DNA from: a bacterium
Lineage (GTDB): Bacteria; Patescibacteriota; Dojkabacteria; SC72
Assembly: GCA_021463465.1 (NCBI GenBank)
Contig: JAJTYH010000002.1
Location: 1,347-65,346 of the forward strand
Length of the DNA stretch: 64,000 nucleotides
Direction of reading: 5' to 3'
The notes below the pieces were generated by a model, which ran no database searches, was not told the origin of the DNA, and was given only the letters and a program-made list of their open reading frames with translations. A program made the position numbers and the translations under genes. How positions within the stretch are numbered: the first letter of the stretch is position 1; each line of letters opens with the position of its first letter. Of this stretch, positions 17,064 to 62,317 are shown in pieces.

Positions 17064-17124
17064 ATTATTAATTTATACCAATGTTTTGTAATCTTCAAAT
17101 GCATAGTATAATCATTAGCTCTAA

Positions 17125-17195
17125 TGCGGGATCGTCTAATGGTAGGACAACGGCCTTTGAAGCCGTGTATCTTAGTTCGAATCTAAGTCCCGCAA
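17125..17195 (+). tRNA. tRNA-Gln (anticodon UUG)
   Basis: Hand-folded: acceptor TGCGGGA/TCCCGCA, anticodon stem ACGGC/GCCGT with loop CTTTGAA, T-arm CTTAG-TTCGAAT-CTAAG, short D-arm. No encoded CCA. Confidence 0.8.
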
Positions 17196-17207
17196 TTTCC
17201 TATTTGT

Positions 17208-18068
17208 GTGTTATATTTTAATGTTATGCGTATACCTTTGCCCAAGCATTACTACAAAATCGTTGATCTCAAATTTGAGAGCAAAAGAATCAGAACATAT
17301 AGGTTTGGAATCGGACCCAAAAAGATACTCTCACTACCTGGCTTTCCTCACTCCGGGCTGACTTACCTCTATTTTCTTCTTAAATATGACCTTAAAAAGG
17401 TTCAGTTCATTACTTTTGACTTACCAGGCTGGGTAGGCAATTCAGAGAATATTTTTGAAGAATTAGGATATAACGAGGAACAGTTGATCATTCTAGTAGA
17501 ATTGATTATTAACAAGTATGAACTTAATCATTTTAGTGTAATTGGATACTCGTTTGGTTCAAGTTTAGCAGCAAGACTTGTTGGCTTAAATAAATATCGA
17601 ATCGAAAAACTCGCTTTAATATCTCCTGTACTTGATGGTGATCAAATTACATATCGCAGATGGCTGTTAAATACGCTCCGACAATTTAAGATATACGACT
17701 ATCTTAAACTGCATATCTATAGGAAAATGAACATTTATAAAGCCCAGCTTATTAAACTTGGTTTAGACCCTTCACTGCTGGATGAATATCAGAAAATGTT
17801 CAAGAATTCAGACAGTAAAGTACTGCTTGAAAGCATAGATAAACTATTCACAAGTAACTACTCATCCTACCTAGACAATTTTGATGCCGACAAGATCTTA
17901 ATTGCCTCATCTAAGGATGAGTCGCCATATATTAAGGAGCAATCTACTCTGTTGCGTCGTAAATTAAAAGGGGAGAAAACCCTTTATTTGGAAGGTAATC
18001 ATGAAGATTTTATTCTTCATCCAGAAACAGAAATGGTGGTGAAAGTCATTGACTTCCTAATCAAATAA
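17208..18068 (+). CDS. alpha/beta-hydrolase fold protein
   Basis: GYSFG nucleophile elbow (GxSxG), with an Asp and a His downstream (NHEDFILHP) consistent with a catalytic triad. The true start may be a few codons in. Confidence 0.6.
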   Translation: MLYFNVMRIPLPKHYYKIVDLKFESKRIRTYRFGIGPKKILSLPGFPHSGLTYLYFLLKYDLKKVQFITFDLPGWVGNSENIFEELGYNEEQLIILVELIINKYELNHFSVIGYSFGSSLAARLVGLNKYRIEKLALISPVLDGDQITYRRWLLNTLRQFKIYDYLKLHIYRKMNIYKAQLIKLGLDPSLLDEYQKMFKNSDSKVLLESIDKLFTSNYSSYLDNFDADKILIASSKDESPYIKEQSTLLRRKLKGEKTLYLEGNHEDFILHPETEMVVKVIDFLIK

Positions 18069-18069
18069 T

Positions 18070-20052: not shown

Positions 20053-20103
20053 TTTGACTCGTATATAATGCTAACTGGTTATTATACAATTAATTAAGAA
20101 ACT

Positions 20104-21875
20104 ATGCCTGAACTTAAAAGGTTATCGGATGAGTTGATTAGTCAGATCGCGGCTGGAGAAGTGGTTGAACGACCTGCTTCTGTACTTAAAGAATTAATAG
20201 ATAATTCAATAGACGCTGGCGCTACTCAGATAAAGGTAAAGCTCAAAGATGGTGGTCTGAAATTGGTTGAGGTTTCTGACAACGGTAGCGGAATGCCCAA
20301 AGAAAATCTTTTGAAAGCTTTTGAACCGCATACGACAAGTAAGATTTCTAATCTGAAGGATCTTAGTGACATAAGGACGATGGGATTTAGAGGAGAAGCC
20401 TTAGCAACAATACTTTCGGTAGCTCAGGTAGAAGTCACATCAGGGCATGACAAGAGTGCGTATTCAATCGTGTTTTCTCAGGAACGCACACCGAAAAAGG
20501 CGGCTCGGAATATAGGTACGACAGTTTCTGTGGCTAACCTTTTCTTCAATACCCCAGCTAGACTAAAGTTTATGAAGACTGCAGAGACGGAATATCGTAA
20601 GATTTTGGAGGTATTTAATAGCTATGCCTTAGCTTATCCTAAAATTCACTTTATTCTTGAAAAGGATCAGAAAGAAGTCTTTAATCTTCCCTCCAGAAAT
20701 GAGGTGAATTTGGACAAAAACAGGGTATTTGAGGTTCTGAAAAAAGCTTTTGTGGAGCGAATGATTCCGATTAAGTCTGAAGGGGCAGGTATTAAAATTA
20801 TCGGACTGATAGGACATCCTTCGGATAGTGCTGTAAAGCAGAATGAACAGTATGTTTTTGTGAATAACCGTCCAATTTGGGATAACGGTATATCAAGAGC
20901 TATACACCAAGGTCTTTCCCGCTTTATTCCACATATGTTTAAGGTGCCGTTTATTATAAAGCTTTTTGTTAAAGCCGATTTAGTTGATGTAAATGTCCAT
21001 CCACGTAAGGAGGAAGTGAAATTTATCAATCCTTTCAGGGTTTATATAGCTATTGAGCAGGCGGTCAAACAAACCGTAGAGCAAGCGACCCAAATGGCAT
21101 ACACGCCACCATCTTCATTTAAGCAAAGTCAACCTACCAAAGGTTACTTATTTGACAACACTGAGATAACTTATACGAAACAAAACGACGTGAAGGAGGT
21201 GAGATTTGGTAAAAAAACTTCTGATTTTAATATTTCCAGAAGCATTGACTTTACCAAGCATATATTGAGAGCTGAAGATACTCAAACCTTTAAGTCTGAA
21301 CCTTTTAAAGCGGTTTACCAACTGTTTAATAAGTATATTGTCATAGAATTTGAAAGTGGGATTTGGCTGATTGATCAGCATGCGGCAGCAGAGAGAATTA
21401 CCTTTGAAAGGTTAGAGAAACAGTATCAAAGTAAGAAGAAAGAGATTCAAAAGCTTTTGGTTCCAACCACAATTGAGATTAGCGATGCTGAAAGTTCCTA
21501 TTTAAAGGAAAATCAGCAATTTTATGAGGATTTAGGCTTTGAACTTAAAATCAATGAGAATGTTTTAGAGATATATTCCATTCCTTCTTTCTTGATGGTA
21601 GGTGGAGTAGAAGAAGTTTTTAAATCGTTATTTGACATCAAAGACGGAGTTACCGATCTCAAGGATAATTACGAAAAAAAATGGGAGATATTTTTGCTGC
21701 TATTGCCTGCCACAGTAGTGTTAGAGCTGGTCAGGGGCTTTCTACACCTGAACTTATCAACATTTATCAAGAACTAGGTCAATGCCGAAATCCTTTTTCT
21801 TGTCCTCACGGCCGTCCTGCAGTGTGGAAGCTGCCATTGACTGAAATCGACAGTCATTTTTTACGGACATACTGA
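20104..21875 (+). pseudogene. mutL: DNA mismatch repair protein MutL, interrupted by a single-base indel in an A8 homopolymer (21674-21681)
   Basis: The N-terminal 20104-21777 piece carries the GHKL ATPase (ELIDNSIDAGA...SDNGSGM). The conserved MutL C-terminal endonuclease/dimerisation motifs (IAACHSSVRAGQ...CPHGRP) sit in a different frame (21681-21875). The switch coincides with the A8 run; adding one A (or removing two) restores ...DNYEKKMGDIFAAIACHSS. Confidence 0.7.
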
Positions 21876-27698: not shown

Positions 27699-28340
27699 AT
27701 GAACCCTTACGTAACCGAAAAGCAGGTGAAGGTCTTGACTATAATTAGGGATTTTTACCTAGAAAAAGGCTATGCACCATCGCTTTCAGAACTCCAACAG
27801 CTTTTAAAGATTAGCACTAAAAGGGGGGTTGTGAACCATCTAATTGCACTTGAAAAAAAGGGTTTTATTATACGAACGAGTGAAGCCAGGGGGATTCAGC
27901 TAGTAGAGGAAGGTGAGTATGAATATATGGTTGGAGTCCCTATATTAGGTTATGCAAACGCAGGTACTCCTCTTGCAATGGCTGAAGAAGCACGTTTGGG
28001 CGTTCTACATATAGATAAGGCTCTTCTTAAACACAAAAACGACCTTTTTGCCCTTATCATTAAAGGTGACTCTATGAATCAAAGAGTAATTAACGGCAAA
28101 AAACTTGAGGATGGTAGTTTTATTGTTGTATCAAAACAGAGCGAGATTCGATCCGGCGATGCAGTTGTAGCAATCTTGGACAATTCAGCTACAGTTAAAT
28201 CGATTAAATACGATGAAAATATGATTGTACTTTATCCTCAATCAGATAATGAAAGACATATGCCAATCTACTTAGATAAATATAGCAACTCACTAATCAA
28301 TGGCAAGGTTGTGATGGTATTGGATAATCCCAAGTATTAG
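27699..28340 (+). CDS. lexA: LexA repressor (S24 peptidase)
   Basis: N-terminal winged HTH (LTEKQVKVLTIIRDFYLEKGYAPSLSEL), an Ala-Gly cleavage region (ANAGTP), catalytic Ser in GDSM, and a downstream Lys. Confidence 0.85.
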   Translation: MNPYVTEKQVKVLTIIRDFYLEKGYAPSLSELQQLLKISTKRGVVNHLIALEKKGFIIRTSEARGIQLVEEGEYEYMVGVPILGYANAGTPLAMAEEARLGVLHIDKALLKHKNDLFALIIKGDSMNQRVINGKKLEDGSFIVVSKQSEIRSGDAVVAILDNSATVKSIKYDENMIVLYPQSDNERHMPIYLDKYSNSLINGKVVMVLDNPKY

Positions 28341-40759: not shown

Positions 40760-41851
40760 TTAGTTAATGCTTCCTATCAACTGATAAATCGGTCCTACAA
40801 TTGTTATTGCCAAAACCCCAATCATCACGGCAACTAGAATCAACATAACTGGTTCAAGTAGTGTTGCTAGATTTTCGGTCAAGTCAGTAACCTCCTCAGT
40901 ATAGTAATCAGCTAAGAAAGCAAGGTTCTCTTCCAGAGTGCCAGTACCTTCAGAAATCTCCAGAATTTTGGTATATGTCTCAGGAAATAATTTGGGGTGC
41001 AGTGCTAATGCCGTAGCCAGGTTTTTACCACCTTTTACATCTTTTCTAACCTCTTCCAAGGCATTTATATACTCCGTGTTATTGACACTTTCTGCTGCAA
41101 CTTTAAGCGATTGCGAGAACGAGGTACCGCTTTCTAGCAAAATTCCCAACGTTCGAGAGAAGTTTGCTAAAAAACGAAAGCGATTTACCTTTCCAAGTAC
41201 AGGAAAGCGAAGTGAAATATAGTCAGAGATACGCCTTCCAATTTTGGTCTTAAGAAAGATATACCCAATCAGTCCAAGTGCCACTACTCCTAGCAAGATA
41301 TATAAACCATTAGTTCTCATGAATGCCGTAGCATCGAGAATCGCCTTAGTAAATGGTGGAATGTTCTTAAATGAGCTAAAAAGTGCTTCCATTCTGGGCA
41401 GAATGAAAAACACCATTCCCAACATTTCAACTCCTGTCAAAGAAAAAATGATAATAGGGTAGGTCATAGCTCCTTTAATCCGCTTATCAAATTCATACTT
41501 CTTTTTCAGATACTCCGCCAAAAAAAGCAGGTTCTTCTCTAATACCGCTGCCTCTTCACCCACAGTAACAAGTGAGACTACCATCTCAGAAAAAATCTTA
41601 GGATATTTAGACATAGATGAAGATAAGTTATTTCCTGCGGCCAAACTCGAATAAATCTCTTCGAAAGCTTTTCGTAAGCGTGCGTCCTCAGACTGTTTAC
41701 CAAGAACTTTAATACTCTCAGAAAGTGATAAACCGGATTTAAGCATCAGTGCAAGATGGCGAATTGCTAGTGCAACATGTAAATCAGACACTTTGCTTAA
41801 GTAGACTTCTGACGTAATACCAGGTTTTTTAACTTCTCTGGGTTTATTCAT
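40760..41851 (-). CDS. pilC: type IV pilus assembly platform protein PilC (GspF family)
   Basis: Two GspF repeats and three transmembrane segments. 363 aa. Confidence 0.85.
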   Translation of the reverse strand: MNKPREVKKPGITSEVYLSKVSDLHVALAIRHLALMLKSGLSLSESIKVLGKQSEDARLRKAFEEIYSSLAAGNNLSSSMSKYPKIFSEMVVSLVTVGEEAAVLEKNLLFLAEYLKKKYEFDKRIKGAMTYPIIIFSLTGVEMLGMVFFILPRMEALFSSFKNIPPFTKAILDATAFMRTNGLYILLGVVALGLIGYIFLKTKIGRRISDYISLRFPVLGKVNRFRFLANFSRTLGILLESGTSFSQSLKVAAESVNNTEYINALEEVRKDVKGGKNLATALALHPKLFPETYTKILEISEGTGTLEENLAFLADYYTEEVTDLTENLATLLEPVMLILVAVMIGVLAITIVGPIYQLIGSIN

Positions 41852-43196
41852 GCAAAGAGGTAACCTTAACTAATTCGTCTAAAGTAATCATTCCAGTTCT
41901 AAGTTTAATCATTCCGTCTTCCATAAGTAGTACTAGACCGTTTTTACGGGCAACAGATAGTAGCTGGTCAGCTGTAACATTCTTTGCAATAACCTCTCGT
42001 ACATCTTTTGTAACTTCAAGTAATTCATACAAGCCAATTCGGCCTTTATAACCTAAGTTGTTACATGCATTGCAACCTACAGAATCGTAGACTGAATCAC
42101 CTACTTTAAGTAATTTAACAATATCTGCCCTAATTTTAGACAGCTCGTCTAAGTCAGCTTTATTAACTTTCCTAGCTTTCTTACATTCCTGGCAAAGTCT
42201 TCTGGCAAGTCGCTGCGCAATCACTAAAGTCAGAGTAGAGGCAGCCAGATAACTCTCAATTCCCATGTCTGTTAAACGAGGAATAGTGGTAACCGCATCG
42301 TTCGTGTGTATTGTCGAAAGCACTAGATGGCCTGTCAAAGCAGCATTAATGGCAATACGTGCTGTCTCAGCATCACGAATCTCACCAATCATCATAATAT
42401 TTGGGTCTTGTCGTAAAAGAGCTCTAAGCCCAGTTGCAAAGGTCAAATCAGTTTTGGTATTCACCTGCACATGATTAACACCCTCAATGTCATACTCCAC
42501 TGGGTCTTCTACCGTAACAATATTCTTCTCACGGGTATTTATCCCCTTAAGTAATGTATAAAGAGTTGTAGTTTTGCCTGACCCAGTTGGACCTGCAGCA
42601 ATAATCATACCGAAAGGTTTCTTCTGATTCTTCTCTACAATCTCCAGGTCTTTGGCTGAAAACCCAAGGTCTGTAAGGGTAAAGTCGCGTCCAGTATCGG
42701 TTAAGAGTCTAAATACGACTTTTTCTCCCTTGGTAACGGGCAAAATGGAGATACGGACATTGAGCTTTGCACCATCAATCTTAAACTCCACACGGCCATC
42801 CTGGGGAATGAAGTGCTCATCTGTTTGCAGTCTCGAGATAACTTTAATCTTAAAAATCAACAGATGTTCCATCTCTTTAGGAATCTCTAACATATCGTGA
42901 AGGGAGCCGTCTATTCTGAAACGAATAATCATTGAAAGCTCACGAGGTTCCATATGAATATCGGAAGCACGATTAAGCAATGCCTCTTTCACTATACCTT
43001 CAAGCAATACCCCTACATCTTCGGAAATGTCATTTTTGAGGCAGAAGTCCACTTCAGGACTGGTTACAAAGCCTTCAGCCAATCGGCGAATATGTTTTAA
43101 TTCTTCTTTAGAGTCAACAGGTAGTGTAGCTTCAGTCTTCGACTCCTCTTTCGAAACCTTCTCCTCTTTTTCCTCCTTTAAATCTATCTTTTTCAT
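41844..43196 (-). CDS. pilB: type IV pilus assembly ATPase PilB (GspE family)
   Basis: Walker A GPTGSGKTTT, Asp/His boxes, and a tetracysteine region (CQEC...CNAC). Confidence 0.9.
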   Translation of the reverse strand: MKKIDLKEEKEEKVSKEESKTEATLPVDSKEELKHIRRLAEGFVTSPEVDFCLKNDISEDVGVLLEGIVKEALLNRASDIHMEPRELSMIIRFRIDGSLHDMLEIPKEMEHLLIFKIKVISRLQTDEHFIPQDGRVEFKIDGAKLNVRISILPVTKGEKVVFRLLTDTGRDFTLTDLGFSAKDLEIVEKNQKKPFGMIIAAGPTGSGKTTTLYTLLKGINTREKNIVTVEDPVEYDIEGVNHVQVNTKTDLTFATGLRALLRQDPNIMMIGEIRDAETARIAINAALTGHLVLSTIHTNDAVTTIPRLTDMGIESYLAASTLTLVIAQRLARRLCQECKKARKVNKADLDELSKIRADIVKLLKVGDSVYDSVGCNACNNLGYKGRIGLYELLEVTKDVREVIAKNVTADQLLSVARKNGLVLLMEDGMIKLRTGMITLDELVKVTSLHE

Positions 43197-43234
43197 TATG
43201 GGCAGTATAAACGAGTAATGCTAAAATATATCAG

Positions 43235-43263
43235 AAAAAAGAAGGGGTGTCATAGGACACCCC
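43235..43263 (-). terminator. Rho-independent terminator/attenuator after pilA
   Basis: On the minus-strand transcript, GGGGUGUC-CUAU-GACACCCC (8-bp GC-rich stem, 4-nt loop) is followed by UUCUUUUUU. It lies between the pilA stop and the pilB start. Confidence 0.55.
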
Positions 43264-43289
43264 TTTCAACTGCAATGAAGTTACTAACT

Positions 43290-43724
43290 TTACTGAGTTA
43301 CTGAAATCACCTTACCGTTTTCTGCGTTAGGTGCATTTACTTGGACACGGTTTGTAGCCGTAGTACAAATTGTATATCCAGTTACAGCATCAGTACCACC
43401 AGTTGGATCAGCAGGAATAGCAGGAATATAATCAGGAACCAAAGTAGTCCCGAGATTCAATCCAGCTGTACCAATAGAAGTTGGAGTCGCAGTACATGCT
43501 GCAATCGTACCAAGACTGGCAACAGTGTTGTTACCTGCAACATACTGGGATACTGCACTAAGTATTGCACTCACTTCAGATGCTCTCTCTGCATTTCGAG
43601 TATCTGCAAAGTTCTTATTTGGGTTAATAGCAACAATCGTTACAGTTGCCAAAATAGCAATCAATGCTACTACTACAAGGATTTCAATAAGGGTAAATCC
43701 TTGGAATTTACTTGCTCGCTTCAT
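43290..43724 (-). CDS. pilA: type IV major pilin
   Basis: MKRASKFQGFTLIEILVVVALIAILA is a canonical prepilin leader plus N-terminal helix. 144 aa, T/A/G-rich globular part. Confidence 0.8.
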   Translation of the reverse strand: MKRASKFQGFTLIEILVVVALIAILATVTIVAINPNKNFADTRNAERASEVSAILSAVSQYVAGNNTVASLGTIAACTATPTSIGTAGLNLGTTLVPDYIPAIPADPTGGTDAVTGYTICTTATNRVQVNAPNAENGKVISVTQ

Positions 43725-44028
43725 AAATTAGACAGTTTATTTTAAATCTTAACCATTCAGTATTGCATAGGCTAAATGTGTAGTCAAGCACAGTACAATA
43801 GTCTAAAGACTGCCATCTTTGCCGTTAGTAATCAATCGATAAGCGAGCCTGTAGAAAGCAAAAAAGGTACAAGAAAAGAATCAGACAGGCATTCCGAAAC
43901 CCCTTGATGTTTACACTGATGAAACTATTGATTAGTTATTGAACGTTGTCGACTTGGAAAATATAACTACAGCGAACCTTTGTCAACATTTAGCCTTGCT
44001 CATGCCTGAATTGAAAGATTGGTTTAAA

Positions 44029-45483
44029 CTAGCTAACCGATAAATTGCCATTACTCAGATTCAAAATCTTATCAATATTCAAATGTTCAACCGAATATAC
44101 ATCGTGGGATATTAACAGTACAGCACCCTTAAACTCATTTAAACACCGTTCAACAACTTCTTTCGTTTCTATATCTAGATGCTGAGCTGGCTCGTCTAAA
44201 ATAAGGAACTGGTACTGATCCCTCTCACTTCTTTCAGAAAAAAGCGAAAATTTAAGTCGTGCCTGTTGCCCTGGTGAGAGTATTTTAACTGGTTTAAGTA
44301 AATCGTCTTGGGTAAACATATACTTTTCTAAAATTTTGGGTAACTGATAATACGAATAATTAGTGTGTTTTTGATAATAATCAATCAGTTTTTCTGTTTC
44401 ATTCATAGGTTTTTGCTTTTGCTCAAAATATCCTACATTTACATTCTCTCCTAAATGAATCTGACCACTGTCAAAAGCTTCTAATCCTAATATACACTTA
44501 ATTAAAGTAGTCTTGCCTTGACCATTGGCACCTAACAACCAAAGTTTTTCATTACCACGTATCTCCAAACTAATATCATCCAACACTACCTTTTCACCAA
44601 ACGACTTCGACAGGTTGCTGACCCTTACCACTAGTTTAGAAGAGTGAACTTCACCTTGAATTGTTAATTGTGCATACTCTTTCTTCACATACTGCTTTAC
44701 TTCACGGTCAGAAACTTCACGTTCAATTCGCTTTTTCGCTGCTTCAGTTGCACTACCACTACGACTACGGATAATCCCAGCCTGTGCTTTAGCCAACAAA
44801 ACTTCTAATCTTTTCTTATGTTCAATAAACCGATTGAATTCTAATTCCTTACGCTCTACCCACCTACTTTTATGTGACAGATAGTCAGTATAATTACCTG
44901 GAAATTGAAGTAATGAAGCTTGATCAAGCTCCCATATTTGGTCGACAGTGCTATTTAACAAATCACGATCATGCGATATAACTAAGATTGCCCCTTTAAA
45001 AGATTTAAAGAAGGTTTTCAACCATGAGATACCTAAAATATCTAAATGGTTGGTAGGTTCATCCATTAGTAGTAGGGTAGGGTTTTCATAAAGTATCGCT
45101 GCCAATTTAAGTCGCATCTTTTCTCCACCTGATAGCGTATTAATTTCCTGATACTGATCTACTAAAAAGCCAAGCTGTCCTAGCACTTTCTCAACCGTCC
45201 AAATATCCCCATTCTTCTTACAGATATCTTCAATATACTCCCCAACCAACATTCCTTCGTTAAAATCAAACTCCTGGTCTAAATAACCGATACGTTCACC
45301 ATCTAGCAAGAGTTTTCCCGAAGTAGGACTATGCTGTCCCATAATGATTTTGAATAGTGTGGACTTCCCTGTACCGTTACGACCAATCAAGCCTATCTTT
45401 TCGCCATTTTTGATAGCAAAGTTCACCTCTTTAAACAAGGTGTGATTGTTAAAAGTTTGTGTCAAACCAATACCCTTAATCAT
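44029..45483 (-). CDS. ABC-F family ATPase (two tandem ABC domains, no TMD)
   Basis: Walker A GRNGTGKST and GANGQGKTT, with signatures LSGGEKMRL and LSPGQQARL. Confidence 0.8.
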   Translation of the reverse strand: MIKGIGLTQTFNNHTLFKEVNFAIKNGEKIGLIGRNGTGKSTLFKIIMGQHSPTSGKLLLDGERIGYLDQEFDFNEGMLVGEYIEDICKKNGDIWTVEKVLGQLGFLVDQYQEINTLSGGEKMRLKLAAILYENPTLLLMDEPTNHLDILGISWLKTFFKSFKGAILVISHDRDLLNSTVDQIWELDQASLLQFPGNYTDYLSHKSRWVERKELEFNRFIEHKKRLEVLLAKAQAGIIRSRSGSATEAAKKRIEREVSDREVKQYVKKEYAQLTIQGEVHSSKLVVRVSNLSKSFGEKVVLDDISLEIRGNEKLWLLGANGQGKTTLIKCILGLEAFDSGQIHLGENVNVGYFEQKQKPMNETEKLIDYYQKHTNYSYYQLPKILEKYMFTQDDLLKPVKILSPGQQARLKFSLFSERSERDQYQFLILDEPAQHLDIETKEVVERCLNEFKGAVLLISHDVYSVEHLNIDKILNLSNGNLSVS

Positions 45484-45522
45484 AAGGTTGATTTTAACAT
45501 GTTACACTAGTGGAGTAGAGGA

Positions 45523-46047
45523 CTAACGCTTTTTGGAAGCATTTCTTTCGAGTTCTTCTTCGTATCTGTCTTTCACTTTTAAGTACAAACCTAGAGAAAG
45601 TAGTAAGTAACAGAGAATCATAATCTGAAACCAGAGAAAACTTCCATAATCCACTTTTTGGAATGCGACTATATAAAGAGGTGAGGCGATAACATTTATC
45701 AATAAAGCAAAGGAATTAATTCTTAGAAACCTCTTTATTGCTTCAAACCCTAACACTCTTCTTATTACTGGCTCAGGCTTGGTATGCAAAATTACATCGT
45801 ATGCCTTACTCTCTTTATTTCCCCCAATTCCAATTTTTTTGAAAGCACTATTTGCTGACCAATCGAGGAAAAGGCCCGTAAAATAAAGAAAAGGAACAAC
45901 CAATATAAACAACAGGGGCGATCGAATCAAAAGCAAGTTATAAAACTTGTGGCCTTCGCAATAAAAAATCAGTGTTACAAGTGGGATACTCCATGCGCTC
46001 AGTCCTCCAATTATATATTCAATCATCATTGTAATCACAAAGTTCAT
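45523..46047 (-). CDS. hypothetical polytopic membrane protein
   Basis: A 174-aa ORF with 4-5 predicted transmembrane helices. Last gene of the kinase-containing operon. Confidence 0.4.
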   Translation of the reverse strand: MNFVITMMIEYIIGGLSAWSIPLVTLIFYCEGHKFYNLLLIRSPLLFILVVPFLYFTGLFLDWSANSAFKKIGIGGNKESKAYDVILHTKPEPVIRRVLGFEAIKRFLRINSFALLINVIASPLYIVAFQKVDYGSFLWFQIMILCYLLLSLGLYLKVKDRYEEELERNASKKR

Positions 46048-46067
46048 ATCCTTAAATAAGGTATTTA

Positions 46068-46754
46068 TTACTGCTCAAAAACAACTGATTCTACTTTTGC
46101 ACCTAGTTTTTTCACAATATCAATCAACTCGTGCTTCATTGCTTTGGGACCACAAATATAAAAGTTTGTATTAAAGTCACCTACATTCTTCATCAAGAAA
46201 CTTTCATTAATCCTCCCATATTCTAAAGTGTTTTTTTGTTCACGTGTCAATGTAAAAATAAGATCTTGTGGATTACGATCAAATATCTCAATTAGTTCTT
46301 CCCTAATTATTATGTCTTCCTCGGTTTTGTTAGAGTAAAAAAGCTTATTACCTTCAATTTCGTTCTTGCTTTTTAATTCTCTTAAGATAGCTATAAACGG
46401 TGTTATTCCAGCGCCTCCAGCGATAAAAATACCTTTTCCTTGATAATTGATTGTCCCCCAAGGTTCACCAATTAGAAGTTCGTCACCCTCATTTAGCGTA
46501 TATAGCTTTTCAGTCATTCCAGAATGATTAGGAAATTCAGAAACATTATAGCTTTTGATTGTAAATTCAAGATGATTGTCAGAGTTCAGGCATGTGAATG
46601 TAAATGGGTGTAGGTTTTCAACCCATCCTGACTGGTTTATTGCAACATCTGTAGCTTGACCTGGCGTGAATTTATACCCGTTTGGTTTTTCCGTGATATA
46701 TCTACGTACATCGTGTGTAATATTCTCAATTTTTATAATTTTAACTTTATCCAT
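46068..46754 (-). CDS. ferredoxin-NADP reductase-like FAD/NAD(P)-binding oxidoreductase
   Basis: An FAD-binding barrel with HPFTFT (RxYS-like), an NAD site IAGGAGITPFIAIL, and C-terminal YICGP. 228 aa, no Fe-S or transmembrane domain. Confidence 0.6.
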   Translation of the reverse strand: MDKVKIIKIENITHDVRRYITEKPNGYKFTPGQATDVAINQSGWVENLHPFTFTCLNSDNHLEFTIKSYNVSEFPNHSGMTEKLYTLNEGDELLIGEPWGTINYQGKGIFIAGGAGITPFIAILRELKSKNEIEGNKLFYSNKTEEDIIIREELIEIFDRNPQDLIFTLTREQKNTLEYGRINESFLMKNVGDFNTNFYICGPKAMKHELIDIVKKLGAKVESVVFEQ

Positions 46755-46770
46755 CTAAACTTTTATCAAT

Positions 46771-48045
46771 TTATTTGCCTCTAACTATATCACTTACTTC
46801 TTTTACAATCTTTGATGCACTATCAAAGTTGCCTTCTGATATTTTACCTTTGTGGAAGATTTCAAAAAAGAATTCATCTAACTTCTTAAGCGTAATTGAA
46901 TCTAAATTTGGATTGTATCTTCCAACTTTTCTCAAACTATCAGATCTATACATTGGGATTTTTGCAGTCTTATCTAATTCCTTTGATGAATGAGGAGACA
47001 CACCAGTGAAAGAGTAGTAAACAGTGGCAGCAAAGCTATACAAATCATCAAATTTAGTAGGAGAATTACCTAGTAGAATACTAGGTGACATATATTCAAA
47101 CGAAGAAACCGCGGCGGCTTCTTCAGGAGTTGTACTCTTAACTAGATCGACTGACTTAACAGATTCCATATCAATCATCTTTACTAAAGGTCTTGTATGT
47201 ACATCTTTTACATATTCTAACTGCCAATTACCTTTGCCACTGCTTGGAACAACAAATTGGCCGGGCTTAATATCTCTATGAACGGCATTGTTTGCGTGGA
47301 TATGATCAACAGCATTTGCACAATCACTTAACATCACTAAACGTGGTTCACTTTCTAAAAGAGTAACATCGATTCCTTCAAGAGAAGGTCCAGAAACATA
47401 TTCCATGACTAAAACTGGATGAAAAGCATCCCGAGAATTCGTTCCGTTACTCTCTTCTTTTCGAAGGAAAGTAGAATCATATATTTTAACAATGTTTGGA
47501 TGGTCAGGTACAGTATTAAAACCGAGCATTTCTTGCGTACTTTTAACAAATGCAGCATCAATCCCTTCAAAACTTGAATCAAATACTTTTATAGCAACTG
47601 GCCTTTCTAAACGTTCATCTTCTGCTAGCCAAACCTCTCCATAGCCTCCGTACTTACCTCCGCTTAAAAATCCAACGACATGGTATCTGCCGTCATTTTG
47701 TACTTCAAACGCTCGAAAGCTTCCAGTTGAACCCATCTTTACTATCGCAAAATCATGCTGTAAAACTTTAATCACATCATCGATATGCGGAAGCTTATCT
47801 TGTTCTAAGACTAACTGTTCACCAATTGTTGATACTTTGTCTCCCTCTTTAACTCCAATGGATGAGAATGAATCCGGTGCATTTATTTGAATATTCGGAG
47901 ATAGAACAACCTTACCATCTGAGAGTGGAGGACCAAGATTTGCCTTAAATTCTTTAACAGGAAACTCCATAACTATTGGCTCAAGGTTATCTGTTTTTGG
48001 ATTTCTTATTTGTCCGATTGTAGTTTTAAAGGTACCATCACCCAT
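46771..48045 (-). CDS. Hanks-type Ser/Thr protein kinase-like protein with degenerate DFG/APE motifs
   Basis: Gly-rich loop GGKYGGYGEVW, VAIKVF (beta3 Lys), HRDIKPGQ (catalytic loop, N replaced by Q), KMIDME in place of DFG, and YMSPS in place of APE. A roughly 130-aa N-terminal extension of unknown fold. Confidence 0.6.
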   Translation of the reverse strand: MGDGTFKTTIGQIRNPKTDNLEPIVMEFPVKEFKANLGPPLSDGKVVLSPNIQINAPDSFSSIGVKEGDKVSTIGEQLVLEQDKLPHIDDVIKVLQHDFAIVKMGSTGSFRAFEVQNDGRYHVVGFLSGGKYGGYGEVWLAEDERLERPVAIKVFDSSFEGIDAAFVKSTQEMLGFNTVPDHPNIVKIYDSTFLRKEESNGTNSRDAFHPVLVMEYVSGPSLEGIDVTLLESEPRLVMLSDCANAVDHIHANNAVHRDIKPGQFVVPSSGKGNWQLEYVKDVHTRPLVKMIDMESVKSVDLVKSTTPEEAAAVSSFEYMSPSILLGNSPTKFDDLYSFAATVYYSFTGVSPHSSKELDKTAKIPMYRSDSLRKVGRYNPNLDSITLKKLDEFFFEIFHKGKISEGNFDSASKIVKEVSDIVRGK

Positions 48046-48089
48046 ACATGAGTATATTCATATCTTTAGAAGTAAATCAAACGAGATGG

Positions 48090-49862
48090 CTATAATTGGG
48101 ATTCAGCAAGCAAACGATAAGTAACAGCCTGTACAAACAAATATAAGTCATATTTAGAGGCTTTGGAAAGGTTTTCTAGAAATCGATTCAAATCAGGATG
48201 TGCTTGAGTCATAGTCGCAATAGCCTGCATATAACCTTTTTGTGACTTTATACTAGCAAGTAACCTGCGAGCGTAAGTAAGGTTTTCCTCTAAATTTGGA
48301 ATCGTTTCCCAATGATTGATATTGCCATTACTAAGATCTAATACGAAGTCTATTTTTTTCAATGGCTTCGAATCATTTGTTTTTGACCTATAAGAAACAA
48401 TAAACTGAGTTTTCTGATCACTAAAAGATGAGAAGCCTGTGAGATTAAAAGGGGTTTTACGTCTTAATTCAACTGAATCAGGAATATCAGTAGAAGGTGG
48501 TAAATCCAGAGCTTTTATATTGGTGATTCGTACTACAAAATCATTAGGTGAACGTGAATAGTCTTGGTTAGGAATGTTTATGATAATTTGAATATTGCCA
48601 TCTGCACTTACGAATTTCTTAATTAAACACGCTTTCCCCATTAAATTGTCTGGTGAATCAGCTATTTCAACCTCAAAATCACCTAGATTTACGGTCCCAC
48701 TTTCATACCATTCACCATTAAGCAGTTTAAGTACATCTTCATTATCCGAGACGCTTTCTAGTGATTCAACTCCTACGATGTTTAACTGAGAACTAAAAAG
48801 TAAACTAAGATATTTCGCAATTTCATTTTTAGTTTGGTCAGGGATGAACTTGGCATTTTTTTCACTTTCATAAAATATTCTTTTTAATGGTTTTTTATCT
48901 GTTTTCACGACTGCTTGAGGGATGAGTTTAATCGGTTTAACTAAGCCACTAAACTCAGCAATAAGGTCGGGAAGGGGAGTAGGGTGCTCTGGTGCAGGCT
49001 GACGGGTAATTGTATAGTTGATTGCAGATTGGTCTGAAAGCTCTTGGCTTAAATAATCAGTCAGGGTAGAAACAAATGCAATATTACATTGTGATAAATC
49101 TTTTTTTCTTAAATCTCGATGTTCCTTAAGAAATTTCACCAAATCTAACTGTTTTAAGTCAAAGTCTAAATTATATTTTTCAGCTAAAATAATACCATCA
49201 AGGATTCTATTTAATATATGGATTTCCGGACTTTGTTCATTCAGAGCTTTGGTTCTAGCTGTAATCTTTTCAATCAAATCATACACTGATACATCATCAT
49301 CTTGGCTCCGATCACTCTCGGTTAATATATTTACCACATCATCCGAGATTTCAATTTCATCAATTAATCCAGGAGTTAATCCTTTAGAGCCGTTATTCTT
49401 AATGAGTGTATCTTTACTACTAATTTGGAGGCTCTCCAAATATTCTCGTTCAAAAGTATCCCTTACATGCCTATACGCAACAATTTCATCTGCTGTTAAA
49501 GGTATGCTCTCAAAATCATTTAACTCGTAGTTAAAGTCAGTCAAAGTGTTATCTAACTCAGTACCTTTCAATGGAACCTGACCTGCCTCAATCTTTTTCT
49601 TTTTAACATCTTCCTTCATTGTTCCTATAAGTTGGAGATACGATGCAAGTGCAGAACCCCTTTGGTCCTGATTTAAATTTTCTGAGCTATAAATCAGTTC
49701 CGAGTTTAAATCCTTTAGCTCAGGGTAAAAAGATACACATTGAGACCTCAGGGCAAGAAGTGTTTCCTTTTCAAACGGGTGTAATTCAAATCGAACAGGT
49801 TGCGTTTTGACATCCTCAGTTGCAGCGATTTCGACTGAAATTTGTTTCCCATCTCTTAACAT
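48090..49862 (-). CDS. large hypothetical cytoplasmic protein (590 aa)
   Basis: No transmembrane segment and no motif I recognise. Acidic, D/E/L/N-rich. Confidence 0.4.
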   Translation of the reverse strand: MLRDGKQISVEIAATEDVKTQPVRFELHPFEKETLLALRSQCVSFYPELKDLNSELIYSSENLNQDQRGSALASYLQLIGTMKEDVKKKKIEAGQVPLKGTELDNTLTDFNYELNDFESIPLTADEIVAYRHVRDTFEREYLESLQISSKDTLIKNNGSKGLTPGLIDEIEISDDVVNILTESDRSQDDDVSVYDLIEKITARTKALNEQSPEIHILNRILDGIILAEKYNLDFDLKQLDLVKFLKEHRDLRKKDLSQCNIAFVSTLTDYLSQELSDQSAINYTITRQPAPEHPTPLPDLIAEFSGLVKPIKLIPQAVVKTDKKPLKRIFYESEKNAKFIPDQTKNEIAKYLSLLFSSQLNIVGVESLESVSDNEDVLKLLNGEWYESGTVNLGDFEVEIADSPDNLMGKACLIKKFVSADGNIQIIINIPNQDYSRSPNDFVVRITNIKALDLPPSTDIPDSVELRRKTPFNLTGFSSFSDQKTQFIVSYRSKTNDSKPLKKIDFVLDLSNGNINHWETIPNLEENLTYARRLLASIKSQKGYMQAIATMTQAHPDLNRFLENLSKASKYDLYLFVQAVTYRLLAESQL

Positions 49863-49892
49863 TTCTTAAAGTTTGACAGGTTATTAATTAGT

Positions 49893-50552
49893 TTAAAGCC
49901 ATTTATTTAAATTTAGGGTGCTTTGGCCACTTTCATCTGTAACCATAGGCTGTTCTTTAGCCCAGTTTAAGAGATTCACTCTTTTGACTAAATTTGTCCA
50001 TTGACCATTTTCTCCAATAATCATTGAGTAGTCATCCGTTCCAAGGTTCTTAGCTAACACTTTAGATTTCATATTGGGATTTTTTGACTGCAACAACATC
50101 AATGCTATATACGCCATTTTTTTGTCAAAAGGATCGGAACTATCTGTGTAATCTCTATAAAGACATACTGTTATTTGACCATAGCCAGGTTCCATATCAA
50201 AACCACTTAAATCAGCCAAAATTACTTCACAAATATGTGGGTCAGTTAGTGGTTTAGAATCAGGCCCTCTTTTGTTATCAATTACACGTGCAAAAGAGTT
50301 AGAAATACCATCTGAAATCAACTCAACATTGTAAGGTGAATTTGAAAGTTCAAAGTCGGCCATAAAATATCCCACATCTGGCCCAATTGTTGGACATGCC
50401 ATTGTCTGAAATTGATATTGCCGTTGATTAACTGCTTCGTCTATGCCAATACCGGATAAATATTGCTCACTTTTTCCTCTAATGTATTTCACTTTTGCCT
50501 CACCCACAGTCATAGGAAGCTTATCCCTTACTGCTGTTTGTCTAGTAAACAT
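49893..50552 (-). CDS. hypothetical protein (219 aa)
   Basis: No recognisable motif. First gene of the operon. Confidence 0.4.
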   Translation of the reverse strand: MFTRQTAVRDKLPMTVGEAKVKYIRGKSEQYLSGIGIDEAVNQRQYQFQTMACPTIGPDVGYFMADFELSNSPYNVELISDGISNSFARVIDNKRGPDSKPLTDPHICEVILADLSGFDMEPGYGQITVCLYRDYTDSSDPFDKKMAYIALMLLQSKNPNMKSKVLAKNLGTDDYSMIIGENGQWTNLVKRVNLLNWAKEQPMVTDESGQSTLNLNKWL

Positions 50553-50665
50553 ATTTATAAGTATTGACTTAATAGAAAATTAAATCATAACTCCATATGT
50601 TTTACAATTATGATTAAGAGCGAACCGAAGTATTGTCAAGGATAATTGAATCAAAAAGGTTGATG

Positions 50666-53266
50666 CTATTCTTCTTTTTTCTCTTTTATATACTTGTATG
50701 TCCCAGCAATGAGTAATAAGAAAAGAATAATAAGCCACCAAAACTCAAATACATTTGCTCTTATTTGCTTTTCAAGCTCTTTATCCTGTTGTGTATTCTC
50801 AGTTTGAGAGGGTGTAGAAGGCGCAGTTGGAGTTGAGATAGGGGATTCAACCTCATTTTCATCGCCATCATCACTTTTTTCTTCGGTATTGTTTATATCA
50901 TTTGAAGCAGTGTAAACAACATCTGGTTCAGATTCACTATTACTATTACTATTACTATTACCATTTCCCTCATTTTCTTCTTCGTTTTCATCGTCTACAG
51001 GCGGTTCTTGAACTGTTGTTACTCCAAGCACACCCTCCGCAGATGTATCTGAAACTTTGTAATAATCGGTACCGGAAATATTAACAACACTTAAACCGAA
51101 ATCTCCTTCGTTCAATGGGATGTTTCCAGTACAGTCACTAGTAATTTCCGATAAGGAATCAACCTCAGGACATATAACCACCCCAGTATTACCAGTCTTT
51201 TTTACAACATAAAGATCGTATACTTCAGATACACCTGGTGCATCAGAAGGGTTGAGACCTTGAATCATTGTTTTTGATTCTGAAGGTAAGGAAATGGGGT
51301 TAACTTCACTCCAATCTCTGTCATCTGATAAATCTACATCAAAATCAGCTACAAGATAGTCACCAAAACTCATCTTAGATTGAATCGAATCAAGACCAGG
51401 AGTAGAAGGATCATAAAATTTAGTGACTAAACTTTCCTCTGTATCAACATTTACGACATCTGAACTAGGTGTTAGATTAAGTATTCTCACGCCCTCAGCA
51501 ATCATATGCACTCTACTACTATTATCATCAGCAACAAGTAAGAAATTTCCAATTGGGTGATATGTAATACCAGAGGGGTTATTAAACTGTGTAATTCCAG
51601 TTCCAAAATCTCCGAATGATTCTATAAAATTCCCTGTACTATCATATTTATGAACTTTATTGCCAAACATATCGACGACAAAAAAGTTGCCGTCAATATC
51701 TTGCGTTATACCACCTAATCTTACTGAACGATTTGTACTACCAGAATCAAAATCTTCAATATATACACCTGTTGAACTAAACTTTTGAATTCTTCCAGTT
51801 TCTGCTCCATCAACTCCTTCATAGTTATCAACCACATAAATATTATCAGCTCCATCTACATATATACTCTCAGGAATCATGAACTCACCATTTCCAGTTC
51901 CTAGTTGACCAAATTGTGAAATATAATTACCGCTTGAATCAAATATCTGCACTCGAGCATTAAAATAATCTGATACAACGATGTTACCATTAGATAATAT
52001 TCCTAGCCCTCGAGCTTCGGCAAACTCTCCATTACCTGTACCACTTGCCCCAAATGAAAAATCTAACGTACCGTCGGAATTAAAAACTTTAACACCACTT
52101 ATGTGACTGATGTAAATCTTATCGGCGTCATCAACTTTCATATGGTAAGCCGCGATTTCTCCAATATCAGAAAAATCTAGAAGTGTGCTTACATAAACTC
52201 CACTTGAGTTATACTTGTTAACTTCGGGTGCAAAAGGTCCATTATAAAGGACTAGGATATCTCCGTTGCTATCTACAGCAACACTAGTAGGAATTGTTAA
52301 CAACCCGTTCTCTGTTCCACTATTTCGATACCCCCATTGAAAGATGCCTAGTGAGTTGAATTTCAAAATTGAATTTAGATTCCAATCAGAAACGTAAATA
52401 TTGTCATCATCGTCAACAGTTAAATACTGTGGAGCCATAAATTCATCTTCACCTGTACCATTTGTACCAAACGAAGAAATCCAAGTTCCATCACTTTCAA
52501 ATCTATGAATTTTAGGGTCATTTTGATCAGTAACTAATAGCTGGCCATTACTAAGTATGGCAATATCTTTTACAGCATTAAAATTACTACCAGAAGCAGT
52601 AGCATCAAAATTAAACATGAAAACCCCGTTTGAATCAAAAACCACAACTCTATGGTTCGAACCATCAGTAACGTAAACATTTCCAGTAGAATCAGTTGTC
52701 AAACCTCCAGGCTCATTTAATTCTCCATTTCCACTTCCAAATGTCCCAAAAGAAGAGATATAAGTACCATCTTTTTCGAAATGTTGAACATTATGCTTGT
52801 TATAATTCGAGATAAAAATTGTATCACTAAACGAGTCCCATACAATCCCTTTTGGGGTGGTAAACTTTTCCTCTTCGGCTCCACAATCACCCCAAGATGA
52901 TAGGTAACCACCGTTTGAGTCTAATATATATACTTTGCAGTCTGATAACACATACAACTTTCCACTACTATCAACTGTCAGACCGATAATTTGACTAGCA
53001 AATTCGCCTTCATTACTCCCACTTCTTCCAACTGTCCTTAGAATCTCTTTAGATTGGTTGATTTTAACCAATCTATTACCAGCATAATCCACATACCAAA
53101 TATTTCCATCGGGAAGAACCGTCAAATCAAAAGGAACCCCAATATTTGTATAAGAGTTGGGAATATTTTGATACGTGTTATAACCAGCGAATGACGTTGA
53201 AACAAGTGTTAGGAATAAAAAGATTGTCCAAAATGTTATTTTTTTAATCACTCCTGATACTACCAA
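50666..53266 (-). CDS. secreted NHL-repeat (beta-propeller) surface protein with C-terminal TM anchor
   Basis: Signal peptide, then at least 12 NHL-like repeats (YVTDxxNHRVxxFDxxG), an acidic (NS)n/E-rich linker, and a C-terminal transmembrane helix plus KEKKEE tail. Confidence 0.7.
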   Translation of the reverse strand: MVVSGVIKKITFWTIFLFLTLVSTSFAGYNTYQNIPNSYTNIGVPFDLTVLPDGNIWYVDYAGNRLVKINQSKEILRTVGRSGSNEGEFASQIIGLTVDSSGKLYVLSDCKVYILDSNGGYLSSWGDCGAEEEKFTTPKGIVWDSFSDTIFISNYNKHNVQHFEKDGTYISSFGTFGSGNGELNEPGGLTTDSTGNVYVTDGSNHRVVVFDSNGVFMFNFDATASGSNFNAVKDIAILSNGQLLVTDQNDPKIHRFESDGTWISSFGTNGTGEDEFMAPQYLTVDDDDNIYVSDWNLNSILKFNSLGIFQWGYRNSGTENGLLTIPTSVAVDSNGDILVLYNGPFAPEVNKYNSSGVYVSTLLDFSDIGEIAAYHMKVDDADKIYISHISGVKVFNSDGTLDFSFGASGTGNGEFAEARGLGILSNGNIVVSDYFNARVQIFDSSGNYISQFGQLGTGNGEFMIPESIYVDGADNIYVVDNYEGVDGAETGRIQKFSSTGVYIEDFDSGSTNRSVRLGGITQDIDGNFFVVDMFGNKVHKYDSTGNFIESFGDFGTGITQFNNPSGITYHPIGNFLLVADDNSSRVHMIAEGVRILNLTPSSDVVNVDTEESLVTKFYDPSTPGLDSIQSKMSFGDYLVADFDVDLSDDRDWSEVNPISLPSESKTMIQGLNPSDAPGVSEVYDLYVVKKTGNTGVVICPEVDSLSEITSDCTGNIPLNEGDFGLSVVNISGTDYYKVSDTSAEGVLGVTTVQEPPVDDENEEENEGNGNSNSNSNSESEPDVVYTASNDINNTEEKSDDGDENEVESPISTPTAPSTPSQTENTQQDKELEKQIRANVFEFWWLIILFLLLIAGTYKYIKEKKEE
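50936..50965. repeat. hexanucleotide tandem repeat (ACTATT)x4 plus one degenerate unit, inside the NHL gene
   Basis: Direct reading of the sequence. On the coding (minus) strand it encodes NSNSNSNS. Confidence 0.7.
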
Positions 53267-60550: not shown

Positions 60551-62317
60551 ATGAGAAATATCTTTAAAATTATAAAGCTAAGCAAACCACTACACGGTTT
60601 GATGCTCTTAATTATTGTAATTGTAATACTTGGAACCCTTTTTGAAATTGTCACACCACTTCTTTCTGGAAAAATCCTAGACGAGGTAATTAGGCAATCA
60701 ACAAACCAAACGAAAGAATTTAGTAAACTCTTCACTCTTTTGGCACTTTCACTTTCATCAATTATCATCTACTTAGCGCTAAGGTCACTAGGGCAAAGAT
60801 TAGGCGACCATCTATCTGGGAAAATAAGAAAATTCCTCACAGAAATATTCTATGATAAAGCATTGAAGATCTCACAATCGTATTATGATTCAGAAATTTC
60901 AGGAAAATTAGTCAACCAGTTAAATAGAGGAATTGCTTCAATACAAGAATTTGCGAATGCCTCAACCAACTTTATCATCCCAACCTTTCTACAATCTTTT
61001 ATTGTTATAGGAATCCTAATGTACTTCAACCTATACTTAGGAATCTTAATGATTTCAATCCTTCCTATCTATCTATGGATTACATCTATCTCAACAAAAA
61101 GATGGGGGCTCAAGGAGGAAGGTAAAAATAAGATTGAAGATTTAACAAGAGGAAGGATTCAGGAGGTGATATCCAATATTAAACTTGTTAAAGGATTTAC
61201 GTCTGAGAAGAGAGAATTTAAGCTGCTTTCAACAAACTTAGACCAAATAAACGCAATATATAAACAGCAAAGTACAGAATTTCACCTTTTTGATTTTTTA
61301 AGAGAGTTAATTCTTAATGTAATCCTTTTTGGAACCGCTTAGATTATCTACAACAATACTTTAAATGGTCTTATTACCGTTGGGTCAGTCATTGTTTTAA
61401 TACAGCTTGTTGACAGAGCAAGATCATCCCTTTTTGGAATGTCATACATCTTAGGACAAATACAAGCAATCGATTCGGGCTCCAAAGAGTTTTTTGAAGT
61501 TTTAAATATTGAGACTACAGAAGATTACAACAAGAAACAAAAGTTTGAAAAAATTAAAAACCCAAAAATTGAGTTCCAAGATGTTACTTTCCAATATGAC
61601 AGTAATAAAACTGTACTAGAAAATGTTTCTTTTGATTTAAGTAAAAATGAAATGGTAGCACTTGTTGGCCCAAGTGGAGCAGGGAAGTCTACAATAGTTA
61701 ATCTGCTTCTCAAGTTCTATAACCCTACCTCAGGAGCCATTACATTTAATGGGAAAAAGTATTCAAAACTCTCACATAACCAAGTTAGGAATAATATAGC
61801 ATTAGTATTTCAAGAGAATGAACTCTTCTCACTATCTATCAAAGAGAATGTTGCATATGGAAGCGATATTGATGATAAGAAAGTCATATCTTCGCTTAAA
61901 AAAGCTAATGCCTGGGAATTTGTAAGTAACTTAGAAAAAGGAATAGATACCTAAGTAGGGGAAAGAGGAATTAAGCTTTCTGGCGGTCAGCGGCAGAGGA
62001 TTCAAATTGCTAGAGCCATATACAAAGATGCACCTATACTAGTACTTGATGAAGCAACATCAAGTTTGGATGCTAAATCCGAAAGTGATGTTTCAGAAGC
62101 TATTGAAAATCTTGTTAAAAATAGGCTAGTTATCGTCATTGCACACAGATTCTCAACAATTCAAAATGCGACAAAGATTATAGTTTTAAATAATAAAAAG
62201 GTAGAAGCAATTGGTGCACCACATATTTTAGCAAAAAAACCAGGTATTTACTCTGAACTTCTTAAGTATCAGATAAAGGGGAATAAGAAACTGCTCAAAA
62301 AGTTTGAGTTGTATTAA
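60551..62317 (+). pseudogene. MsbA/Sav1866-type ABC exporter (TMD-NBD fusion) interrupted by two in-frame stop codons (TAG 61340-61342, TAA 61952-61954)
   Basis: The ORF-table pieces 60551-61342, 61439-61954 and 62066-62317 all lie in one frame. Hand translation across the stops is continuous and conserved: ...LFGTA*IIYNNTLNGLITVG... (TM helix 6) and ...NLEKGIDT*VGERGIKLSGGQRQRIQIARA...VLDEATSSLD... (Walker A GPSGAGKST; signature and Walker B lie beyond the second stop). Confidence 0.75.

Follow-up and report, generated by a model that had tools for sequence, protein, structure and literature searches.

Results

The kinase gene and its product

The DNA analysed here is a 64,000-nucleotide stretch of a Dojkabacteria genome (GenBank assembly GCA_021463465.1, contig JAJTYH010000002.1, positions 1,347 to 65,346 of the forward strand; hereafter the window), and our subject is one gene within it that encodes a divergent protein kinase (Table 1). 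The product, which NCBI annotates as 'protein kinase [bacterium]', is a genuine Hanks-type kinase-fold protein whose similarity to known kinases lies far beyond chance. Its Pfam Pkinase (PF00069) match covers residues 133-367 with an E value of 1e-18 and 68.1 bits against a cut-off of 31.7, and its best relatives of solved structure are PknB and PknA of M. tuberculosis (PknB, E=2.4e-16 with HMMER; PDB entries 1O6Y and 5U94). An AlphaFold2 (AF2) model, with a mean predicted local distance difference test score (pLDDT) of 76.9 and values of 80-98 in the kinase core, has the bilobal kinase fold, and its top Foldseek match is PknB (5u94, E=1.8e-15, template modelling score 0.85 normalised to the target).

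An artefact can be discounted: contigs from no fewer than five independent samples carry nucleotide-identical copies of the gene, each time beside the same neighbours, and the CAA codon of Q263, a residue central to what follows, is two substitutions away from either Asn codon (AAY). Copies compared across contigs were all identical apart from one G68R variant, and the G+C content of the gene is 0.365, against 0.369 for the window.

Pfam detects no domain besides Pkinase in the protein, which stops directly after the kinase domain and has no C-terminal extension. PASTA kinases differ in this respect, as the protein carries neither PASTA domains nor a transmembrane segment (no dedicated transmembrane prediction was made), and the protein scored 90.3 bits with the Stk1/PknB PASTA kinase profile (NCBIfam NF033483), short of its cut-off of 450, the match being confined to positions 6-210 of the 563 in the profile. 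The region ahead of the kinase domain has no family match in Pfam or NCBIfam. The original prediction, made from the letters of the sequence, described it as an extra domain of roughly 130 residues; there is an extension, but it is about 117 residues long and, at pLDDT mostly below 60, is modelled with too little confidence to be called a folded domain. On the reading that we favour, the product is a soluble, cytoplasmic, chromosomally native Hanks-type Ser/Thr kinase of a nearly orphan, fast-diverged lineage.

Table 1. Features of the kinase gene, its product and its neighbourhood (positions in the window; residue numbers in the kinase)
Feature	Position	Strand	Remarks
Kinase open reading frame (ORF)	46771..48045	minus	Complete, ATG start, 424 aa + stop; NCBI record MCC7290307.1
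N-terminal extension	47695..48045	minus	aa 1-117; AF2 pLDDT mostly 31-62
Hanks-type protein kinase domain	46774..47694	minus	aa 118-424; Pfam PF00069, PknB match, AF2, Foldseek
Gly-rich loop (G-loop) LSGGKYGGYGEV	47632..47667	minus	aa 127-138; S128 for first Gly, GGK inserted at 129-131
VAIK motif	47587..47598	minus	beta3 Lys K153 kept; K in 100/100 homologues
alpha-C segment K168-S169-T-Q-E172	47530..47544	minus	alpha-C Glu E172 kept; E in 99/100 homologues
Catalytic loop HRDIKPGQ	47257..47280	minus	aa 256-263; H, R, D, K kept; metal-binding Asn replaced by Q263
16-residue insertion GNWQLEYVKDVHTRPL	47185..47232	minus	aa 272-287 (G272-L287), relative to PknB; between catalytic loop and DME
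DME for DFG	47164..47172	minus	aa 292-294; Asp kept, Phe to Met still hydrophobic, Gly to Glu (E294)
Activation loop	47089..47163	minus	aa 295-319; contains 'TTPEEAAAV'; P+1 'GT' replaced by S314-S315
SPS for APE/SPE	47080..47088	minus	aa 320-322; Glu replaced by S322; E in 98/100 homologues
N406 at subdomain-XI Arg position	46828..46830	minus	R in 96/100 homologues
Two co-directional upstream ORFans	48090..50552	minus	590 aa and 219 aa; gaps 44 and 30 bp
Three co-directional downstream genes	44029..46754	minus	FAD/NAD oxidoreductase, 174-aa ORFan, ABC-F ATPase
Ferredoxin-reductase-like (FNR-like) FAD/NAD oxidoreductase	within 44029..46754	minus	228 aa; 16-bp gap to kinase
174-aa predicted membrane ORFan	45523-46047	minus	
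ABC-F ATPase	44029-45483	minus	Last gene of the co-directional kinase row
Type IV pilus cluster: pilin	43290-43724		
Type IV pilus cluster: PilB-like	41844-43196		
Type IV pilus cluster: PilC-like	40760-41851		

Motifs kept and motifs lost

The protein resembles the PknB/PknA type in its bilobal fold, VAIK Lys, alpha-C Glu, HRDxK, DFG Asp, gatekeeper Met and alpha-F Asp, but departs from PknB in lacking the catalytic-loop Asn, the DFG Gly, Thr171/173, the P+1 Gly-Thr, the APE Glu, the subdomain-XI Arg, the alpha-C RF and the G-loop Met, and in having the N-terminal extension of about 117 residues and the 16-residue insertion before DME. Three independent lines, namely alignment to PknB with HMMER, alignment to 100 bacterial homologues with MAFFT (the reference for all counts out of 100) and the AF2 model with Foldseek, put the variant motifs on canonical positions. 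In the PknB alignment HRDIKPGQ (256-263) falls on HRDVKPAN, KMIDME (289-294) on KVMDFG and YMSPS (318-322) on YLSPE; VAIKVF lies at 150-155. The original prediction had reported DME in place of DFG, SPS in place of APE and Gln in place of the catalytic-loop Asn, and these readings were borne out by all three alignments and are rare among the homologues; the beta3 Lys and HRD Asp that it had called conserved are K153 and D258. It was right about the canonical order of the motifs but not about their spacing, which is altered by the G272-L287 and GGK insertions. No true DFG or APE motif, which would have counted against the original prediction, was found elsewhere in the kinase: a 'TPE' at 306-308 was ruled out as the APE, since it lies just 14 residues past D292 and does not align to that motif.

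Kept in the protein are K153, E172, H256-R257-D258, K260, P261, D292, D334 and the gatekeeper M214, and its spine positions hold hydrophobic residues. The columns of the beta3 Lys, alpha-C Glu, HRD Asp and DFG Asp, occupied here by K153, E172, D258 and D292, are 99-100% conserved. Within DFG, the Asp is invariant among the homologues (100/100), the second position holds F in 87, L in 9 and M in 4, and the Gly is present in 99. The catalytic-loop Asn is likewise found in 100/100 homologues and in 367 of the 376 kinase domains of a wider comparison set scored at this position, in which Gln occurs in one other domain. That domain (residues 82-269 of P0220, a protein of 1119 aa) reads HRD.K..Q and then DF-, and P0220 carries two kinase-like stretches.

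The original prediction overlooked further losses in the same structural module. The PknB phospho-sites T171/T173 align to P307/E309 (HMMER alignment); column 307 is T or S in 90 of the 100 homologues, and the P+1 Gly column (314), a Ser here, is G in 98. The APE Glu and its salt-bridge partner, the subdomain-XI Arg, are gone together. The bacterial alpha-C 'RF' motif (R in 89, F in 87) is replaced by K168-S169, and the G-loop Met typical of bacteria (81/100) by Y135. The activation segment is predicted to be ordered (pLDDT 78-86). Conservation among the homologues reaches 90% or more in 31 columns; the protein matches 25 of them and departs at six: S128, Q263, E294, S314, S322 and N406, of which one is in the G-loop, one is at the metal-binding Asn and four lie in the activation segment or its anchor. 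Taken together, the losses make up a single coherent whole: the activation segment, its subdomain-XI anchor and the alpha-C RF motif. Because 25 of the 31 columns are kept and the departures cluster in this way, the pattern suggests targeted remodelling and not general decay.

A single informative relative

An HMMER scan of 1.84 billion protein cluster representatives returned 116,998 kinases at E<=1e-3, yet at E<=1e-30 it returned the query alone. The nearest relative, P0121, is a 405-aa metagenomic protein (Logan SRR22452305; E=4e-30, 29-31% identity) and is the reciprocal best hit of the query, scoring 130 bits where the runners-up score 110 and 78. It has the same layout of N-terminal extension and kinase domain, only the last ~25 and first ~20 residues of the extension being weakly common to both in the alignment, and the same 16-residue insertion (K[GD]NW..[DE]Y....RP). 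Five of the six departures are also common to the two proteins: P0121 has DLA for DFG and SPD for APE, and lacks the subdomain-XI Arg (N, like N406), the P+1 Gly and the first G-loop Gly. It differs in keeping the catalytic-loop Asn (HRDFKPSN), in a degenerate G-loop that is almost free of Gly, where that of the query is Gly-rich, and in its upstream neighbour, a divergent peptide deformylase gene, so the genomic context of the kinase is not known to be conserved.

Since P0121 has five of the six departures, remodelling of the activation segment is a lineage trait older than the split between the two proteins, and since P0121 keeps the Asn, the change to Gln is specific to the line of the query. 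P0121 retains every catalytic-core residue (K, E, HRD, K, P, N, D, D). The core has thus been kept while about 70% of the sequence was erased between the two and the regulatory motifs were already gone, which is an argument for continued selection on catalysis or, at the least, on nucleotide handling.

Other candidates and searches did not enlarge the family. P0181 looked similar (DNA / SKD / no subdomain-XI Arg) and was dropped as a third clade member, not being a reciprocal best hit; P0002 and P0011 proved to be canonical tandem kinases. A word-indexed search and a profile search (query, P0121 and P0181) added nothing beyond generic kinases. In a scan of genome contigs, generic HRDIKP matches dominated and the sole Patescibacteria match (L031) was fully canonical; a metagenome scan with a lineage-specific segment returned canonical high-GC kinases alone, and a viral scan found no family members. 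A literature search found no paper on Hanks kinases encoded by the candidate phyla radiation (CPR).

Host and gene neighbourhood

The UvrB protein encoded in the window places the host, as its named homologues, at 65-73% identity, are all from Candidatus Dojkabacteria / candidate division WS6 (CPR/Patescibacteria). The kinase gene lies in a tightly packed row of co-directional genes, in the same order in all contigs that carry it, and the row lies between an NHL-repeat surface protein and a type IV pilus cluster. The two upstream ORFans are possible operon partners of the kinase; on weak evidence, a promoter-like site precedes the 219-aa gene. A single-sequence AF2 model of the 590-aa ORFan was unusable (pLDDT 34.7). 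Nothing in Pfam, NCBIfam, PADLOC, PHROGs or the PDB matches the three ORFans (590, 219 and 174 aa) that flank the kinase, and the ABC-F ATPase narrowly passed the NCBIfam 'ribosomal protection-like ABC-F' model (383.3 against a cut-off of 380).

A related strain, L004 (SRR35280563), was compared with window positions 41375-50978. Over the pilus ATPase, the ABC-F gene and both upstream ORFans the two differ by 2-4%, and the 219-aa ORFan has 261 aa in L004. A block of about 3.5 kb (~45.0-48.5 kb), comprising the 174-aa membrane ORFan, the FNR-like gene and the kinase, is 100% identical. An identical block between flanks that differ by 3-4% points to recombination or an assembly mosaic within the population.

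Pfam annotation of the window covered 62 ORFs of at least 120 aa; three overlapping, probably spurious ORFs were left out. The NHL/beta-propeller repeat protein that borders the row (50666-53266, minus strand, 866 aa) carries hydrophobic stretches towards both ends, an N-terminal segment and a C-terminal anchor, as well as an acidic low-complexity region (NEEENEGNGNSNSNSNSESE...), and may be a cell-surface or host-contact protein. Further along, an ABC exporter gene (60551-62317, plus strand, 588 codons) encodes a transmembrane and a nucleotide-binding domain with Walker A, LSGGQ and Walker B all present; it contains two in-frame stops (TAG at 61340, TAA at 61952) through which homology continues with no frameshift, and looks like a nonsense-mutated pseudogene. 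The window also holds a LexA repressor gene (27699-28340, plus strand) and genes for DnaE, UvrC, UvrB and MutL (11118-21777), together a fairly complete SOS/repair set for a reduced CPR genome.

Discussion

The reading that we favour, at about even confidence, is that this protein is an atypical, probably slow but still catalytic kinase. The phosphotransfer core is kept in full: the K153-E172 pair, H256-R257-D258, K260, D292, D334 and the gatekeeper M214 are present, as are a Gly-rich loop and a hydrophobic spine. Gone are the elements through which activation-loop phosphorylation switches on ordinary bacterial kinases, namely the phospho-Thr itself, the Gly hinge of DFG, the P+1 Gly-Thr, the APE-Glu/XI-Arg clamp and the alpha-C Arg-Phe. 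The alpha-C Arg contacts activation-loop phospho-threonines (bSTK Atlas preprint 10.1101/2025.01.12.632604). Because that Arg, the threonines, the hinge and the clamp are all replaced here, and because the acidic E308/E309 are located where the phospho-threonines would be, the activation segment may be held in one conformation without phosphorylation.

The replacement at the DFG Gly has parallels. An acidic residue occupies this position in active or ATP-binding kinases, as in the DFD of Mnk1/2 (PMC3326643), and in DYD kinases and in POMK (DLD) its partner is a basic residue in beta3 or the G-loop (PMC12599244). All three keep the DFG Asp, as does the query, which has E294 and an extra G-loop Lys, K131; E294 may form a salt bridge to K168, K131 or K153. 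None of these lineages is related to that of the query: Mnk keeps the Asn and the APE motif, and the DYD kinases, which are membrane-associated, lack the beta3 Lys and the alpha-C Glu. As for the metal site, the ligands of the two cations are Asn171 and Asp184 in PKA numbering (PMC4718504), so N263Q would be expected to perturb the second site, and turnover could be slow and/or unusually cation-dependent. The unusual metal/ATP geometry that the original prediction offered as one of two options is plausible on these grounds.

In favour of a working enzyme, the kinase ORF is intact over 424 codons, whereas the ABC-exporter pseudogene in the same window has in-frame stops. Several observations weigh on the other side. 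The catalytic-loop Asn is invariant in the homologues, and Gln, one methylene longer, may not substitute for it; loss of this Asn together with Glu at the DFG Gly also occurs in Tribbles pseudokinases, whose activity is cation-independent and weak at best; and the degenerate G-loop of P0121 hints at relaxed nucleotide binding in the lineage. P0121 is also the one relative by which selection can be gauged (n=1). Finally, no PP2C phosphatase, FHA protein or second kinase was found among the 62 annotated ORFs of the 64-kb window.

Much the same observations can be taken to describe a functional pseudokinase, non-catalytic or barely catalytic and possibly an ATP-binding scaffold or switch, with its fold kept for protein-protein interaction, perhaps with the adjacent ORFans. 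The loss of the metal-binding Asn along with the DFG Gly, APE Glu and XI Arg, the Tribbles precedent, the P0121 G-loop, an activation loop without a phospho-acceptor at the canonical position and the lack of a phosphatase or FHA partner nearby all fit this reading, and nucleotide binding is not reliably predictable from sequence (PMC4718504). We think it less likely than the atypical kinase, though it is the most serious of the alternatives. A pseudokinase is recognised by sequence as having lost the VAIK-Lys, the HRD-Asp or the DFG-Asp (bSTK Atlas preprint 10.1101/2025.01.12.632604; related review), and the query is not one by this definition because it keeps all three. Its catalytic-core residues are all common to P0121 at about 30% identity, its own G-loop is Gly-rich, Gln still has the amide group of Asn, and the Asn of P0121 places the site under constraint in the lineage. 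The pseudokinase scaffold that the original prediction had put forward as its other option thus falls outside the sequence definition. The motif losses that it reported are real, rare and correctly placed, and we regard its interpretation as a whole as partly supported.

That the gene is a decaying, effectively neutral remnant with no maintained function in a fast-evolving, reduced genome strikes us as improbable. It is nearly orphan, with one relative at E=4e-30 among the 1.84 billion representatives, many hallmark residues are gone, pseudogenes do occur in the genome, and the gene copies carry no population variation that would show purifying selection. But the ORF remains open throughout, the departures sit in one structural module and are not scattered, the catalytic residues and the lineage-specific 16-residue insertion are common to P0121, the AF2 kinase core is confident, and the gene is packed tightly into a co-directional row that is the same in all contigs. 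Least probable is an anti-phage defence or phage-derived kinase of the PD-T4-6, MADS mad6 or Stk2-like kind. PADLOC does match PD-T4-6 (E=4e-27) and mad6 (E=2e-26), as do PHROG 2361 (E=3e-24) and, in part, NCBIfam MADS6; these scores of 55-94 bits, however, amount to the generic similarity also seen with PknB (90 bits) and fall far under the NCBIfam cut-offs (MADS6, 55 against 460 bits; PglW of BREX, 24 against 990). The neighbours have no defence or phage match except the generic ATPase similarity of the ABC-F protein (best mad3, E=4e-45, PADLOC), tblastn against phages gave 25-27% identity at most, the viral scan was empty, the G+C content of the gene is native, and no integrase or transposase was found among the Pfam-annotated ORFs of the window.

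Returning to the atypical kinase, the closest functional models come from outside the lineage. Tribbles proteins (SLE motif) also have Glu at the DFG Gly position and a residue other than Asn in the catalytic loop, and the weak, cation-independent ATP use of TRIB2/3 and CASK (CASK: PMC4718504) serves as a working model for N263Q with G294E. The resemblance is one of analogy, not homology: the DFG Asp is missing from both TRIB proteins and CASK, and TRIB proteins also lack the alpha-C Glu and have a G-loop that is acidic and degraded, whereas the query keeps the DFG Asp, the alpha-C Glu and a Gly-rich loop. Casein kinase 1 (CK1), in the Hanks & Hunter classification, is an active family that naturally lacks the APE Glu (it has a SIN motif) and the subdomain-XI Arg, although it keeps the DFG Gly and the catalytic-loop Asn. 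CK1 delta itself gave a weak PDB match over residues 209-341 (E about 5e-5), which indicates no specific relationship. Membership of two further groups was also considered and rejected. The CP1 (pseudo)kinase family is defined by fusion to a COG3899 ATPase and has a cyanobacterial/proteobacterial distribution (PMC12599244), and the query has a Pkinase domain alone in a Dojkabacteria host. In the DYD family the beta3 Lys is replaced by Arg, the alpha-C Glu is missing and the eponymous motif accompanies membrane association (PMC12599244); the query has K153, E172, a DME motif and no C-terminal extension (no dedicated transmembrane prediction was made).

A more specific proposal, which we offer as a speculation unlikely to hold in all its parts, is that the query and P0121 belong to a small, undescribed CPR lineage of phosphorylation-independent kinases. 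Their activation segment would be permanently locked, E294 pairing with a Lys in alpha-C, in the G-loop or in beta3, and E308/E309 standing in for phospho-threonines. In the query, the second cation site would have been rebuilt around Q263/E294/D292, permitting cation-independent or unusual-metal phosphotransfer as in CASK/TRIB2 but with the catalytic triad intact. Such a kinase might act constitutively, possibly on the adjacent ORFans, in an episymbiont that lacks the usual phosphatase/FHA circuitry.

The protein belongs to a well-known enzyme family, of which it is a divergent and nearly orphan variant, and it already carried a generic protein kinase annotation. The substitutions make up a rare, internally coherent combination, which does not in itself demonstrate a new mechanism, and the wider significance of a single near-orphan protein is limited. 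To our knowledge, almost nothing is known about phospho-signalling in the CPR, to which it adds one data point. If the protein proves inactive, the three-residue sequence definition overlooks some bacterial pseudokinases. Should it be active, it would offer a natural case of a Hanks kinase able to use Gln where the otherwise invariant metal-binding Asn stands and to do without both the DFG Gly hinge and the APE/Arg clamp, and would help to separate those 'invariant' residues that are needed for catalysis from those that serve regulation.

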